From the UHGV virus genome UHGV-1600828: DNA of 16,701 nucleotides. The stretch is one strand, 5' to 3'. This document shows, one piece after another, positions 2,434 through 16,701 of the stretch. Within the stretch, counting starts at the first letter, position 1. Each line of letters opens with the position of its first letter. The position numbers and the translations under genes are program-made. The notes beneath the pieces were generated by a model. The model worked only from the letters and a program-made list of their open reading frames with translations. It did no database searches and had not been told where the DNA came from. Source of the DNA: a virus.

Positions 2434-2964
2434 ATGAAAGGCTATATCACAGCAAGTGTAATTCTTGGAGCAGCGGCTATTTTTTCATCTCTCATAATCT
2501 CTGGCAACATCTCCTTTAAAGATGAACATATTATTCAGTTATCTGGAGGAGCCATAAAACTTGGTGATGTTTATAAAGAAAATAAATTGATAAGTGCAAA
2601 GATTATTTTTCCAGATAATCAGGGTGAACAGATTCTTGTTGTCGACGGCAATCCTGAAAACTTTAAGGAGGATTTTCAGGAGAAATTAAATAAAGTAATA
2701 AAAACTTTAAATGCGTCAAAGAAAAAAGATGAAGAGAAAGTTAGCCTGGATAATTTAAGTGTTATTGAAGAGTCTAAACTAGAGCTCGTTTCTGCGGTGC
2801 GTTACTCTGCTCAGTATGTTCCTATGTTTACTCTGACGCTGGACAAAAAAGAAATTACCATGCCTAAAAATACGGTAATATTTCCATTTGCCAGCGATGA
2901 AACAGCTAAGTATTTAAATGAACAACAGCAAAAGTATAAAGATTCGTTGTTTCTGACTCGCTAA
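2434..2964 (+). CDS. Moron-encoded membrane-anchored or secreted protein of unknown function, 176 aa
   Basis: AT-rich ORF inserted between GC-rich tail genes. N-terminal hydrophobic stretch (MKGYITASVILGAAAIFSSLIISG) followed by a Lys/Glu-rich body. Has its own promoter-like and terminator-like signals. No recognisable catalytic motif. Confidence 0.6.
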   Translation: MKGYITASVILGAAAIFSSLIISGNISFKDEHIIQLSGGAIKLGDVYKENKLISAKIIFPDNQGEQILVVDGNPENFKEDFQEKLNKVIKTLNASKKKDEEKVSLDNLSVIEESKLELVSAVRYSAQYVPMFTLTLDKKEITMPKNTVIFPFASDETAKYLNEQQQKYKDSLFLTR

Positions 2965-10202: not shown

Positions 10203-10256
10203 TGCAGAAATAACGAGCAAATGGCATCATTCCTGCTTTTGTCAGGGAGATCCACC

Positions 10257-10811
10257 ATGCTTATTGGCTATGTACGCGTATCAACAAATGACCAGAACAC
10301 CGATCTACAACGTAATGCGTTGAACTGTGTAGGATGTGAACTGATTTTTGAAGACAAGATAAGCGGTACGAAGTCCGAAAGGCCCGGACTGAAAAAACTG
10401 CTCAGGACATTATCGGCAGGTGACACTCTGGTTGTCTGGAAGCTGGACAGGTTAGGGCGCAGTATGCGGCATCTTGTTACGCTGATAGAAGAGTTGCGCC
10501 AGCGTGGCGTGAATTTCCGAAGCCTGACTGACAGTATTGATACCAGTACCCCAATGGGCCGTTTCTTTTTTCATGTCATGGGTGCCCTGGCTGAAATGGA
10601 ACGAGAACTGATTGTTGAACGAACAAAAGCTGGACTGGAAGCTGCTCGCGCACAGGGACGAATTGGTGGACGTCGTCCCAAACTTACACCAGAACAATGG
10701 GCGCAGGCCGGGCGATTAATTGCATCAGGCGTTCCTCGCCAGAAGGTGGCGATCATCTATGATGTTGGTATATCGACACTGTATAAGAAGTTTCCGGTCG
10801 GAGATAAATGA
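10257..10811 (+). CDS. Site-specific DNA invertase, serine recombinase of the Hin/Gin/Pin/Cin family, 184 aa
   Basis: ATG at 10257 preceded by GGGAGA. N-terminus [18 protein letters not shown] with catalytic Ser in VRVSTNDQ, and a C-terminal helix-turn-helix region (…GRRPKLT…STLYKK…) match recalled Gin/Hin sequences. ORF-track start at 10221 adds 12 unlikely residues. Confidence 0.9.
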
Positions 10812-10871: not shown

Positions 10872-11741
<870 letters not shown>

Positions 11742-11870: not shown

Positions 11871-12083
11871 CTGGCTGGTGAACTTCCGATAGTGCGAGTA
11901 TTGAATGATTTCCAACTGTTATCGATTTTGCGTATTTTTTGCATGAGAGGATTTTTACCTCCTCCCACCGATCCTCCATGGCTTTACGCCAGTGTCTCTG
12001 GTCTGCTATGTGCCAAAAGTAGACATTGCTGACATAAAATATATGATTTGACCAACTACAACCGAAGAATAGTCCAATACATC

Positions 12084-12112
12084 TTGGGTCTACATCCAAC
12101 TAGTTATAGAAT
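12084..12112 (+). promoter_or_regulatory. Candidate promoter for the 12150 gene (TTGGGT -17 nt- TAGAAT)
   Basis: -35-like TTGGGT at 12084-12089 and -10-like TAGAAT at 12107-12112. Pattern match only. Confidence 0.25.
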
Positions 12113-12149
12113 CCCGAGTATACATGTTAGTTTTGGACATTCTAATCAC

Positions 12150-12569
12150 ATGAAATATTGCTACCTGATAATTTTAAGCTTGACTATTTCTTCTGCTCAG
12201 GCTGAGACATTTCCCGCCAAGCTAACCTGTAATACGGGTGAACAAATTACTCTTAAAGTTACTGGTCCAGAGCAGCGACTGATCTACACTTCTTCACTCT
12301 ATGGAACATTCCATGGATATCTCGATGTATTTAAAGGGTTATCACCTGAGCGTCAATATGAGGTACTTGCCAATATTCATGGAATAGCTCGATATAGGGA
12401 CAGCCCGTTACATTTTACTCTCCTAATGAAACGAACCAATGGTGAGATGGATAATGGCTCAATTATCTATCGATATACCTACCTGAAAGACGAGCAACTG
12501 ATTGATGAAGAAGGACATTGCAGTCCGATAAAAGATGGCGGATTTATTGAGGGGAGCAAAAGTTACTAA
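12150..12569 (+). CDS. Small secreted/periplasmic protein of unknown function, 139 aa with predicted signal peptide
   Basis: ORF-track start at 12048 is a TTG. First ATG at 12150 gives MKYCYLIILSLTISSAQA|ETFP…, a typical Sec signal peptide with an AQA cleavage motif. Two Cys in the mature part. No strong SD. Confidence 0.5.
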   Translation: MKYCYLIILSLTISSAQAETFPAKLTCNTGEQITLKVTGPEQRLIYTSSLYGTFHGYLDVFKGLSPERQYEVLANIHGIARYRDSPLHFTLLMKRTNGEMDNGSIIYRYTYLKDEQLIDEEGHCSPIKDGGFIEGSKSY

Positions 12570-12884
12570 GGCCAAGCGTATAGTTATCGGTATGCTTACC
12601 GTTTGCAGACCCCACGGCGCTCAGGCAGCCCGCTCCGTGCCAATAGCAGGCATTACTATGGTCTGTTCCGTAACAGTCATTTTTACCAAAGTATATGGTT
12701 AGAACTATGCCGAAAATGCCCTCATACCATAATTAGAACTAACAATTAATTTTTTAAATTAAAATAGTTTAAAGAGTCATTTTTAATCACTTATTTATCG
12801 TGCTTATAGCTCGAAAGATACACCTTATCATCATCCCCTGTTACAATGTAGGGAGTAGGTCAATAAGATTAGAAGGAGATTTAA

Positions 12885-14351
12885 GTGAAAAAAATCAGTG
12901 ACGAACAAATTAATATCGAGGCTCAATCAGGATATAGACCATGGACTATAGATTCTGGTATCGGATTGCTTCCCTTTTCAGAATTAGGTGATCGAGAATT
13001 TGAGTTGCTATGTTATTTGTTAGTAAAGAACGAAATTGAAGATGGAAAGCATAAAAATATATCCTCAATATCTTTAATGCAAGGAGTTTCTGAAAGAGGA
13101 CGCGACTGCGTGCTATACCATAACGGTGTTGTAAGTGGTTTAATACAATGTAAAAAAATGCAAGGTAGAATAACTAGACCGCAAGCATTAAGAGAAATAA
13201 TTAAATTTTTATTGTTTTCCATTATTGATAATAGTTTGCTTCCCGCTCCTGATTGTTTCGAATATAAGTTGTATGTATCAAATGACATCGCTGAAACTAC
13301 AAACTCACTAATTCATTCTTACTCAACCGAAGTTGAGGTGGAAATAAAGTCTGATACTATCAGTAAGTATATAAAAGATGTTGTATCTGAATACGAGTCA
13401 TTCAAAATTTTTGAAAACAGCCTACCAATTAGTAAAGTTATTGATCTTTTGAGACGGATAAATGTAACCGCATCAAATGCAACAGATTTAACCTTGCGAG
13501 TTCATAAGTATGATTCATTGTTATCATTGTTTTTTAATGTAAAAACTGTAATCGACTTAGAATCTGCAGATAAAGTTATACGTAACGCGCTTGATGACTA
13601 TGGTTTAAAATACTTGACCGATGAAGACTTAAAACAACTTCAAATTCGCATTTCAAATACTAAAGAAGAAAATCGAATAAATTTAGGTTTTGTGGATTTC
13701 TTTGGTTATAACAAAGAGTTTTTTAAATCCTTGAAAGGCGAGCCATTTAAACAAGTGATAGAAGCGGTTGCGTCGGTAACATTATCATTAGATAAGTATT
13801 TAATGGAATTCATAAATAGTAAAATCAATGAGCTAGTTTTTGAAAACGTCACAATAAAATTATTAAATCCAGGGAGGATTCACCCTTTCAGTGTGGGCGT
13901 GGTGGCACCTTACCTATTTCAGAGACTGTCCATTAAAGTCGTCTCAAGAAAGTTGCCAACAGAGTTAGTCACCAAATTTTATGAACAAGCATCTCTGTCC
14001 AAAAAGGAATTAATCGACTCGATAGCAATACAGCTCTTTGAAACAAGCGAAAGAGTTATGAAAGGAGATTTCAGTCAGTTAGTGGGAAATCCAGAAGACA
14101 TACAGTTTAAAAAGAGAATATTCACTCATATACATAATGGATTCAACAGTATAGAAGATGCAAAAACTACTTTTTCTCGAGACATCCAGATTATAATGCC
14201 AACATTAGATTTTATAGAAGAAAAAATAGGTGAGCTATTACAAGAAGAGCGTACTGTGGTAATAAAAGACGCCTCTTTTTTGGATAATGATGATGAGATT
14301 AAGAAAATAGCAAAAACGCTGAGTATGATCGAACCCAATCCAGGCGCATAG
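12885..14351 (+). CDS. 488-aa protein: N-terminal Mrr/restriction-endonuclease-like (PD-(D/E)xK-type) motif plus large uncharacterised C-terminal domain; candidate defence protein
   Basis: GTG start at 12885 with AAGGAGA RBS 6 nt upstream. N-terminal …REFELLCYLL…GVSERGRDCVL…GLIQCKKM… resembles the recalled Mrr-catalytic pattern (E … D … QxK). Remaining ~380 aa are Lys/Glu/Ile-rich with no motif recognised. Confidence 0.7.
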   Translation: MKKISDEQINIEAQSGYRPWTIDSGIGLLPFSELGDREFELLCYLLVKNEIEDGKHKNISSISLMQGVSERGRDCVLYHNGVVSGLIQCKKMQGRITRPQALREIIKFLLFSIIDNSLLPAPDCFEYKLYVSNDIAETTNSLIHSYSTEVEVEIKSDTISKYIKDVVSEYESFKIFENSLPISKVIDLLRRINVTASNATDLTLRVHKYDSLLSLFFNVKTVIDLESADKVIRNALDDYGLKYLTDEDLKQLQIRISNTKEENRINLGFVDFFGYNKEFFKSLKGEPFKQVIEAVASVTLSLDKYLMEFINSKINELVFENVTIKLLNPGRIHPFSVGVVAPYLFQRLSIKVVSRKLPTELVTKFYEQASLSKKELIDSIAIQLFETSERVMKGDFSQLVGNPEDIQFKKRIFTHIHNGFNSIEDAKTTFSRDIQIIMPTLDFIEEKIGELLQEERTVVIKDASFLDNDDEIKKIAKTLSMIEPNPGA

Positions 14352-14387
14352 AATAACTGTAGTTTTGGTATTTTTATTTTTAGTAGC

Positions 14388-14413
14388 TGTGTTAGTGTAA
14401 TTGCACTAACACA
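14388..14413. repeat. Perfect 10-bp-stem inverted repeat (CTGTGTTAGTG-taattg-CACTAACACA)
   Basis: Stem 14388-14397 pairs with 14404-14413 around a 6-nt loop. Not followed by a U-run on either strand, so not a canonical intrinsic terminator. Confidence 0.5.
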
Positions 14414-14417
14414 CTCC

Positions 14418-14470
14418 TTGAGCTGCTCCCCGTTGCTTAGGACACTTCAATGTTAGTCATGAAGTAGTGA
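14418..14470 (+). repeat. ~50-bp imperfect direct repeat, copy A (partner at 16647-16701)
   Basis: TTGAGCTGCTCCCCGTTGCTTAGGACACTTCAATGTTAGTCATG… aligns with TTGACCTGCTCCCCGTTGATTAGTACACCCCGATGTTAGTAATG… at the window end, roughly 80% identical by eye. Confidence 0.6.
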
Positions 14471-14745
14471 ACTTCCGCTCATCGCTCATAACAGACATAA
14501 ACTTCAGTTATGGCATAAAGGTATGCATGCTGGGTGGGGAAAGTATGAAGGAAAAGAAGACTGCTGCGCCGTTTGTCGTCACGTTTATCTTCATTGGCTA
14601 TGCAAGTCGTAATACAAGGTGGGACAAAACTGAGACACATAAGGCCTCGCAATGGCTTGCAAGGCTTTACATGTTTTGATGTGGTGGGACGTGTGAGCGC
14701 AGTGTTGATGGGGTAATGCTTTGAATTAGAAGTGGATTCTTATAA

Positions 14746-14790
14746 TTCGTAATGCGAAGGTCGTAGGTTCGACTCCTATTATCGGCACCA
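14746..14790 (+). other. 3' fragment (~45 nt) of tRNA-Thr(CGU) (thrW-like); likely prophage att junction (attR-type remnant)
   Basis: TTCGTAATGCGAAGGTCGTAGGTTCGACTCCTATTATCGGCACCA: anticodon-loop remnant reading CGT, T-arm GTAGG-TTCGACT-CCTAT, 3' acceptor strand TATCGGC, discriminator A and CCA. Upstream sequence cannot form the 5' acceptor, D-arm or anticodon stem, so it is not an intact tRNA. Matches the recalled E. coli thrW 3' end. Confidence 0.7.
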
Positions 14791-15254: not shown

Positions 15255-16241
15255 ATGGCTACTGCAGAGCAGATCAAAGCTTTATTGAAAAGCCACGTTG
15301 ATCGTGATGATCAGCGTTTCTTTTCTATTGCTTTGCAGGTGGCAGCTAAGGAAGCAAGGCAAGGTCATCATAAGCTTGCTAATGATATAAAAAACTTAGT
15401 TGATAAAAATCAGAAAACAACGAGTTCTGTAGGTTTAGTTGAAAAACGACTTACACCATTTGTTAAGCAGCCTGATGGTGATCTTAAGGGGTTACTTGAG
15501 CAAACGAACAAGCCAGTACATCTTCAAGATCTGGTGATTTCTGGAAGCGTTAGGGAAAGATTGAATCAGGTTCTGCTTGAACAAAAACAGAAAGATAAAC
15601 TTTCTGAGTTTGGGCTTATTCCAAGAAGAAAAATTCTTTTCACTGGTCCTCCCGGTACTGGTAAGACAATGTCCGCATCAGTCATTGCTACAGAGTTAAA
15701 GCTACCACTTTATACAGTCGTCTTAGATAATCTAATCACTCGCTATATGGGTGAAACTGCAGCTAAGCTGCGTTTAATTTTTGACCACATACGGCAAACA
15801 AGAGCTGTATATTTTTTTGACGAGTTCGATGCTATAGGAACTCAGCGTGGCGCTCAGAATGACGTTGGAGAAATTCGTAGGGTCTTAAATTCTTTTTTAA
15901 TGTTTGTAGAGCAGGATGATTCTGAGAGCATAGTTTTAGCTGCAACCAATCATCCAGAGCTTTTAGATCGCGCCTTATATAGACGATTTGACGATATTAT
16001 ACCGTTCACAAGGCCTGAGGATAATCTAATCAGGAATCTTATTGAACAGAGACTCGCTGTCTTTGACCTCGGTAATTTATTTTGGAGTGAGATCATTGAT
16101 AGTGCTTCAGGTCTAAGTGCAGCGGAGATCACGCGAGCAAGTGAAGATGCTGCCAAAGAATCAGTGCTTTATAATGCAAACAATATTACAACCGATTTGT
16201 TAGTAAAGGCTATAAAGCGTAGGCAAGAAAGTAGACAATAA
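15255..16241 (+). CDS. Classic-clade AAA+ ATPase, 328 aa
   Basis: Walker A GPPGTGKT, Walker B VYFFDEFD, sensor-1/second region of homology LAATNHPELLDRALYRRFD with an Arg-finger-like RR. ~120-aa N-terminal non-ATPase region. GAGGGG RBS-like upstream. Confidence 0.8.
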   Translation: MATAEQIKALLKSHVDRDDQRFFSIALQVAAKEARQGHHKLANDIKNLVDKNQKTTSSVGLVEKRLTPFVKQPDGDLKGLLEQTNKPVHLQDLVISGSVRERLNQVLLEQKQKDKLSEFGLIPRRKILFTGPPGTGKTMSASVIATELKLPLYTVVLDNLITRYMGETAAKLRLIFDHIRQTRAVYFFDEFDAIGTQRGAQNDVGEIRRVLNSFLMFVEQDDSESIVLAATNHPELLDRALYRRFDDIIPFTRPEDNLIRNLIEQRLAVFDLGNLFWSEIIDSASGLSAAEITRASEDAAKESVLYNANNITTDLLVKAIKRRQESRQ

Positions 16242-16249
16242 GGGATGAA

Positions 16250-16669
16250 ATGACTACCAACAAGAGGCATATTTTATTAAACGGCTATGTTTCCCCCGAA
16301 AACTATCGCTCTAGGAGCAATGGTCGTAGTCCCCAAGTCCCAGCTCGTGATCGAGCGGTACATGGTATATCATTACTAAATCAGTATAGCCGTATATTGA
16401 ATCATTATGATGAAAGACCGAGGCTTCCCCCTGTTACTGATGAAAAAGGGATTTATGTTAGGCTAATCAGTTTTGAACAATGCGATCTTCCTATAGATAA
16501 AATCGATAATACTTATTTCAAGCTTTGTTCTTTAGTTAAATCAAATAATCGTGAAACTGCGATTATATACATTAATGAAAATGACAGAACTAAATTCACT
16601 AAAAAAATAAATGACTATTTGAATCCATCGAAGGATGGTATCGAGTTTGACCTGCTCCCCGTTGATTAG
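16250..16669 (+). CDS. Hypothetical protein, 139 aa, co-operonic with the AAA+ ATPase
   Basis: ATG 8 nt after the ATPase stop with AAGGGA RBS, suggesting co-transcription and coupling. No recognisable motif. Its 3' end lies inside repeat copy B. Confidence 0.6.
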   Translation: MTTNKRHILLNGYVSPENYRSRSNGRSPQVPARDRAVHGISLLNQYSRILNHYDERPRLPPVTDEKGIYVRLISFEQCDLPIDKIDNTYFKLCSLVKSNNRETAIIYINENDRTKFTKKINDYLNPSKDGIEFDLLPVD

Positions 16670-16701
16670 TACACCCCGATGTTAGTAATGTCTTCATAAG
16701 C
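16647..16701 (+). repeat. ~50-bp imperfect direct repeat, copy B (partner at 14418-14470), truncated by the window edge
   Basis: Overlaps the last codons and stop of the 139-aa gene (…FDLLPVD*). Aligns with copy A. Confidence 0.6.

Follow-up and report, generated by a model that had tools for sequence, protein, structure and literature searches.

The distal end of the prophage sequence in the viral genome UHGV-1600828, analysed here as one stretch of 16,701 nucleotides (the window), carries an open reading frame (ORF) for a 488-amino-acid (aa) protein annotated as hypothetical. A known defence gene, PD-T4-3/CMoRE, is already present at the same prophage end. Based on the comparisons described below, we suggest that its product is probably an anti-phage or anti-mobile-element nuclease. 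More specifically, and with much greater reserve, we propose a self-contained sensor-effector immune nuclease, carried as prophage cargo and activated by oligomerisation. As far as can be judged from sequence comparisons, what is new is that a familiar nuclease effector stands under a control domain without a known relative.

The gene and its N-terminal nuclease core

The original prediction, made from the sequence alone, had described an ORF with a strong ribosome-binding site and an N-terminus resembling the Mrr-type PD-(D/E)xK nucleases. Direct reading of the sequence confirmed the ORF (488 codons and a stop, with a GTG start) and the ribosome-binding site (Table 1), and the start agrees with the N-termini of the homologues in a family alignment of 51 sequences (32-100% identity). 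The peptides on which the nuclease assignment had relied (FELLCYLL, ERGRDCVL and GLIQCKK) are all present in the translation. The positions invariant in the alignment are D36, R37, F39, E40, the stretch R71-G-R-D-C75 and Q88-C-K90, and the invariance of E40, D74, Q88, C89 and K90 across the 51 sequences is estimated to be far above chance.

The alpha-beta-beta-beta-alpha-beta core fold of the PD-(D/E)xK nucleases, with its acidic residues and (D/E/Q)xK motif, is present in residues 30-135. The nuclease-domain alignments cover about 120-140 residues with the invariant motif, and the assignment of this region as an Mrr-type nuclease core, with predicted DNase activity, is therefore sound. In Pfam, Mrr_cat (PF04471) matches 30 of the 51 homologues at E<=1 (best 5.7e-6), and one database cluster, P0107, has a precomputed PF04471 assignment. 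The 488-aa protein itself is unmatched, so that the family reaches significance and the single sequence does not.

An effector module shared with Lamassu and STAND proteins

The nuclease core is followed by a helical linker subdomain, and the two together form a shuttling effector module of 230 aa. PADLOC does not call the 488-aa gene as a system, and gives a weak match of its product to LmuA of the Lamassu systems (E 0.0036, residues 36-181). The same LmuA model (PDLC03852) is matched by 43 of the 51 family members, with a best E-value of 2.1e-9, as would be expected of an LmuA-type N-terminal effector domain. In every member examined these matches are confined to model positions 18-173 of 336, i.e. 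to the N-terminal half, and they reach residue ~181-195 of the 488-aa protein.

Other relatives were found when a profile of residues 136-488 was searched exhaustively against 1.84 billion representative proteins. The long proteins retrieved in this search match the first 100 profile positions only, and are assigned by Pfam to STAND NTPases and TPR proteins: P0230 carries nSTAND3, P0235 carries NACHT, P0251 and P0258 combine TPR and PIN, and P0240 has weak, sub-threshold NB-ARC/nSTAND matches. Residues 3-232 align with the N-termini of P0230 (33% identity, E 9e-38) and P0240 (37% identity, E 5e-48). These STAND proteins are 900-1350 aa long, and the identity stops just past the invariant FF near residue 217. 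Hidden Markov models of the N-terminal domain and linker also match the N-termini of P0235, P0251 and P0258. Since the identity to the STAND proteins stops at the module end, residues 1-230 constitute an evolutionary unit. This unit has been joined to at least three types of control region: the C-terminal domain in LmuA, an NTPase with repeat sensors in the STAND proteins and, in the 488-aa family, the domain specific to it.

As in LmuA, which has been studied in Vibrio, Bacillus and Salmonella, an N-terminal PD-(D/E)xK nuclease is followed by a helical linker, and by analogy the expected logic would be that of a DNase gated by its assembly state. The 488-aa protein exceeds LmuA by about 150 aa, and differs from it in having a conserved distal domain of its own, which occupies the place of the LmuB/C-binding domain of LmuA. 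The same domain also stands in the place of the NTPase and sensor repeats of the STAND proteins. Compared with Avs-like STAND proteins bearing Mrr/Cap4-type N-terminal effectors (Avs3 and Avs4, and here P0230, P0235 and P0240), the NTPase/sensor part is replaced by a helical domain of 260 aa, and only the N-terminal 230 aa are common to both. No match to a P-loop STAND NTPase or to a TPR/repeat sensor was found in the 488-aa protein or its full-length homologues.

The LmuA matches might be taken to mean that the protein is an orphan or decayed LmuA, which would either need an LmuB/LmuC sensor encoded elsewhere or be non-functional. We consider this highly improbable, as the C-terminal half of the LmuA model is never matched, the LmuA C-terminal domain (responsible for LmuB/C binding and tetramerisation) is unmatched by sequence or fold, and the model of the distal domain retrieves no LmuA chain. 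Neither LmuB (an SMC/Rad50-like ATPase) nor LmuC is encoded in the window or among the recurrent neighbours of the family (25 loci, ±5 kb; see below), and no SMC-like gene is shared by these loci. Furthermore, the 260-aa distal domain has its own invariant residues and is conserved across phyla, which argues for an autonomous, selected function. No orphan LmuA proteins of such kind are described in the searchable literature.

The distal C-terminal domain

Residues ~229-488 are all-helical in the predicted structure, except for one short beta-hairpin. Residues G240, R255, G268, G274 and Y343 are invariant or nearly so, as are the motifs GDYS, HxHxG and RTVVIKD. The original prediction could name no relative of this region, and our searches bear this out: Pfam scans of 22 members gave noise only, PDB sequence profile searches with the full-length and C-terminal alignments gave chance-level matches only, and Foldseek with the C-terminal domain reached a best E-value of 1.1. 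No LmuA chain was returned by either structural search of the domain. Among the 1.84 billion representatives the domain has only 214 matches at E<=1e-3, and, fragments aside, nearly all of these share the ~485-aa architecture. Residues 229-488 form a fold without a known relative.

The first part of this region, residues 229-282, is the point at which the architectures are exchanged. In this junction the alignment columns are conserved to a mean of 0.64, as against 0.66 in the nuclease core and 0.46-0.51 in the remaining C-terminal region. The predicted local distance difference test (pLDDT) is below 50 at residues 221-245, where the junction starts and the model is least confident, and about 68-80 in the remainder of the junction. 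A junction that is conserved yet modelled with low confidence would fit a hinge, or an interface, in which order is induced by binding or by self-association.

Two variations of the architecture were observed. Three distant full-architecture homologues of 692-740 aa (P0218, P0222 and P0252) have an extra C-terminal extension of ~200-260 residues. A weak KOW motif close to the end of this extension (E ~1e-3 in P0218 and P0222, 0.024 in P0252, all sub-threshold in Pfam) is a hint that the proteins of some lineages contact nucleic acid or the ribosome. In the metagenomic protein P0219 (443 aa), the distal domain of the family (residues 182-428) is preceded by another kind of N-terminal region. 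This region is a member of a family of ~265-aa proteins in which the sole DUF4062 carrier is one distant homologue; PDB and Pfam searches with it were empty. P0219 may be a fusion of this control domain to an alternative effector, or a chimera produced by assembly, and the C-terminal domain may pair with other effectors, as the DUF4062-like N-terminus of this protein would illustrate.

Distribution of the family and its genomic neighbours

A database search gave 120 homologues, nearly all of 483-491 aa, from Gamma- and Betaproteobacteria, Campylobacterota, Syntrophia-type bacteria and Bacteroidota, and a peptide-pattern scan of one genome per species (185,579 species) gave at least 21 loci. 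Such a rare but cross-phylum spread indicates horizontal transfer of the family. All ORFs within ±5 kb were compared at 25 loci, of which one is the window, five come from database contexts and 19 from species genomes; they represent gamma- and betaproteobacterial, Campylobacterota, Deltaproteobacteria-type and Bacteroidota genomes. No conserved neighbour was found: no neighbour family is common to more than four of the 25 loci, and the recurrent neighbours are generic only (two-component regulators, integrases and ABC proteins). None of the recurrent neighbours is an SMC-like, cyclase, methyltransferase or antitoxin-like gene, and neither LmuB nor a SAVED domain or NTPase was found with the gene. 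The description of the gene as stand-alone holds, and these results support the conclusion that it is solitary.

The Enterobacter homologue is located in a degraded P2-like prophage, near genes for an OLD nuclease and a reverse transcriptase, and the Pseudomonas homologue adjoins the end of a P2-like prophage. Those of Stutzerimonas and Burkholderia lie in small integrase islands, and that of Acinetobacter in an element with umuDC. Nine IMG/VR viral contigs carry a homologue; in three of the four longest with an intact copy, the gene is within 1.7-5.3 kb of the contig end. In a plasmid search the matches were limited to an assembly fragment and a distant one from Agrobacterium. To judge from these contexts, the gene is distributed in the manner of mobile cargo or of a defence gene.

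Two disrupted copies were also encountered. In E. coli ECONIH5 (locus L050) the gene is broken by IS5 in its 5' part, and in an Acinetobacter prophage contig (L049, 7989-10497) a transposase gene is located at about codon 225 of the homologue. These two independent insertion sequence (IS) disruptions could reflect a fitness cost of the gene, or simply IS-rich surroundings.

Prophages, integrase islands and IMG/VR contigs, all of them mobile or variable, are the constant setting of the gene. This setting, and the two IS-disrupted copies, which fit a costly gene, would also suit a selfish or accessory nuclease without a defence role, for example a toxin that enforces addiction, a weapon against competing elements, or a nuclease of recombination or host takeover. 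We regard this as improbable. The gene lies outside any conserved phage module and was absent from the deposited phage genomes searched (see below), it has no conserved antitoxin-like partner, and its immediate neighbours in the window are one validated and one catalogued defence gene. Competition between elements would, in addition, overlap mechanistically with defence.

A model of gated nuclease activity

The N-terminal nucleases of Avs proteins are activated by assembly. A comparable principle was revealed for Lamassu by cryo-electron microscopy: LmuB/C hold LmuA as an inactive monomer, which is an active DNase once tetramerised via its C-terminal domain, with two nuclease domains paired on DNA (bioRxiv 10.1101/2025.04.02.646746). 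Because the 488-aa protein has the same effector module, no partner gene and a large conserved domain of its own, a single-chain sensor-effector is the most economical model.

According to this model, the protein would be an inactive monomer, or auto-inhibited, in the uninfected cell, the C-terminal domain keeping the nuclease silent. A phage-derived cue (a protein or a DNA structure) would be read by the C-terminal domain, which would then drive self-association, and the paired nuclease domains would create a competent cleavage site. The resulting DNA cleavage would stop phage replication, probably at the expense of the infected cell. Both the trigger and the activation by oligomerisation we infer by analogy with the systems named above. 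It is possible, albeit rather doubtful, that the 260-residue C-terminal domain is a new, nucleotide-independent sensor and assembly module that itself recognises the phage cue and oligomerises the shared Mrr-type effector. The protein could then be described as an 'Avs without the ATPase' or a 'Lamassu without the SMC'.

Several observations weigh against the model of a single-chain immune nuclease. The searches with the C-terminal domain give no clue to a binding partner, and the predicted template modelling score of the full-length model is only 0.47, so that the model does not fix the arrangement of the domains. The closest characterised structural relatives of the nuclease are MspJI and AspBHI, which are sequence- and modification-specific, non-abortive restriction enzymes. 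The single 488-aa sequence gives nothing significant in Pfam, NCBIfam or PHROGs, the significance in Pfam being reached at the family level only. In 50,697 deposited phage genomes no match was obtained by tblastn, and the link to phages therefore comes from prophage cargo regions only. Diagnostic peptides of the family are absent from the DefensePredictor candidate tables examined, and the searchable literature makes no mention of WP_000723924.1, the RefSeq entry for the protein. Finally, we infer the defence role from the context (the neighbours PD-T4-3 and ietA) and from homology. The original interpretation of the gene as a candidate single-gene defence gene is supported.

The prophage locus

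The segment 12700-14500 is 100% identical to E. coli ECONIH4, and the same stretch is present in ~35 of 5426 complete E. coli genomes; by this match the source DNA of the gene is E. coli. The features of the locus are collected in Table 1. As had been predicted, the gene lies in AT-rich DNA, the GC content being 0.32-0.35 over 13001-14500 versus 0.52-0.61 in the upstream tail genes. The low-GC cassette is present in only ~27-35 E. coli genomes, where it follows the much commoner PD-T4-3 gene. The 139-aa ORF travels with the 488-aa gene in this E. coli cassette. Its signal peptide, and its lack of conservation beside the homologues at the 25 loci, led us to reject it as a partner or antitoxin.

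Table 1. Coordinates of the 488-aa gene, its domains and signals, and the neighbouring features of the window
Feature	Position	Strand	Basis or remark
488-aa ORF (including stop codon)	12885..14351	+	RefSeq WP_000723924.1, annotation "hypothetical protein"
Shine-Dalgarno sequence AAGGAG	12873-12878	+	6 nt 5' of GTG start; direct reading
Mrr-type PD-(D/E)xK nuclease core (predicted), residues 30-135, alpha-beta-beta-beta-alpha-beta	12972..13289	+	
E40 codon, invariant acidic residue on helix 1	13002..13004	+	sequence and alignment
D74 codon in invariant R71-G-R-D-C75, predicted metal-binding Asp	13104..13106	+	sequence and alignment
Q88-C89-K90 codons, invariant QxK (D…QxK variant of PD-(D/E)xK)	13146..13154	+	sequence and alignment
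Helical linker subdomain, residues 136-228, ending in invariant F216-F217 (FF)	13290..13568	+	LmuA and STAND matches
Junction, residues 229-282, motif ALDDYGLKxLTDxDLKxLQxRI … RINLGFVDFFGY	13569..13730	+	conservation and pLDDT
Distal all-alpha C-terminal domain, residues 229-488, nearly family-confined	13569..14348	+	profile, fold and architecture searches
Low-GC cassette, ~2.4 kb (139-aa signal-peptide ORF and 488-aa gene)	12020..14420	.	GC profile and genome comparison
Stem-loop, 11-bp core stem, no U-tract	14385..14414	+	starts 33 nt past stop; z-score -1.77 only
Invertase PinE, Resolvase and HTH_7	10221-10811		upstream of 488-aa gene
PD-T4-3/CMoRE, GIY-YIG gene	10872-11696	-	PADLOC E 2.7e-140; ~1.2 kb from 488-aa gene
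139-aa ORF, clear signal peptide (MKYCYLIILSLTISSAQA)	12150-12569	+	no family match; upstream of 488-aa gene
thrW tRNA fragment	14745-14790		identical to 3' 46 nt of K-12 thrW tRNA-Thr(CGU)
IetA, AAA ATPase	15255-16241	+	PADLOC E 5.5e-77; begins 0.9 kb downstream of 488-aa gene
IetS, S8-peptidase, first 139 codons only	16250-16669	+	ORF cut at 16647

Upstream of the gene lie Mu/e14-type baseplate and tail-fibre genes, followed by the invertase. The gene had been placed between this invertase and an att-like tRNA fragment; this position is right but imprecise, as PD-T4-3 and the 139-aa ORF also lie between the invertase and the gene. The tRNA fragment proved to be part of thrW, a sequence that serves CP4-6-type islands as their att repeat; being incomplete, it escapes both ARAGORN and Rfam. 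The place of ietA behind the 488-aa gene is taken in other strains by CP4-6-like genes (ykfI/yafW and others). The analogy with the slot of the restriction gene mcrA in prophage e14, also drawn originally, is correct, since mcrA follows pinE at the prophage end in K-12. PD-T4-3 occurs commonly in E. coli and has been characterised by experiment as a type IV endonuclease; it has been renamed CMoRE, and its target is DNA with 5-hydroxymethylcytosine (5hmC) and glucosyl-5hmC (PMC12923530). The 488-aa gene is located in a mobile defence hotspot.

Downstream of the gene, ietAS is probably inactive in the window, because the reading frame of IetS breaks off at 16647. The ietA segment is flanked by two direct copies of a 44-nt repeat (14418-14461 and 16647-16690; 84% identical), and matches to other genomes span 14482 to exactly 16647. 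This repeat looks like an insertion-sequence end or a recombination site.

A promoter scan directly 5' of the 488-aa gene found no consensus sigma-70 site; a TGnTACAAT-like extended -10 element at 12839-12847 was recognised by eye only. The hairpin downstream of the gene is not significant by its z-score, and is a weak candidate for the end of the transcript. Elsewhere in the window, the tape-measure and DNA-circularisation genes of the tail module enclose a sharp low-GC pocket (0.34) with a 176-aa ORF (2434-2964, forward strand), which is unmatched in Pfam and PADLOC and could be another moron.

Comparison with restriction enzymes and other defence nucleases

The main rival to the model of a single-chain immune nuclease is a solitary type IV restriction endonuclease, dependent on DNA modification or structure. 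Here the helical C-terminal domain would read modified or foreign DNA and the Mrr-like domain would cut it, conferring immunity without cell death, as do McrA, Mrr, the MspJI family and PD-T4-3/CMoRE. The location of the gene, in the slot of e14 mcrA and adjoining the type IV enzyme PD-T4-3/CMoRE (PMC12923530), agrees with this possibility, as do the nearest characterised folds, which favour a restriction enzyme. Like Mrr and MspJI/AspBHI, the 488-aa protein has an Mrr_cat-type core with a D…QxK motif and is encoded by a solitary gene; a methyltransferase partner was present at none of the loci, and a solitary nuclease must spare unmodified self DNA.

However, the order of the domains is opposite, the nuclease being N-terminal in the 488-aa protein and C-terminal in Mrr, MspJI and AspBHI. 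No reader fold was found, as Pfam and fold searches revealed neither an Mrr_N winged helix nor an SRA-like or other modification reader. The closest sequence relatives of the nuclease and linker are the effector ends of LmuA and STAND proteins, and Lamassu effectors are non-specific DNases gated by assembly (bioRxiv 10.1101/2025.04.02.646746). We consider a type IV enzyme unlikely, though by no means as remote as an orphan LmuA or a selfish nuclease.

A likeness to Cap4 of the CBASS systems had been noted as well. The absence of a cyclase gene (CD-NTase) nearby was confirmed, no SAVED or CARF domain was found, and Pfam scans of the family give Mrr_cat instead of the Cap4 nuclease family.

Many single-gene PD-(D/E)xK systems are now known, 13 new ones having been described in the DefensePredictor study alone. 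Of the DefensePredictor candidates, DS-20 (487 aa, PDX1, WP_032291790.1) is of nearly identical length and was rejected as an unrelated protein: it begins MPKLRIYFSDFF…, and its PDDEXK domain is at residues 333-474.

If the 488-aa protein is protective, it would constitute a one-gene system in which a killing module common to Lamassu and STAND/Avs proteins is combined with a control module without a known relative. It would offer a compact test case for how a PD-(D/E)xK effector can be silenced and activated without an ATPase or a second-messenger sensor. A second question for which the family might be helpful is the shuffling of effector modules among immune architectures. The gene would also extend the view of the invertase-proximal end of e14/Mu-like prophages as a defence hotspot, occupied by mcrA in K-12 and by PD-T4-3 together with the 488-aa gene here.
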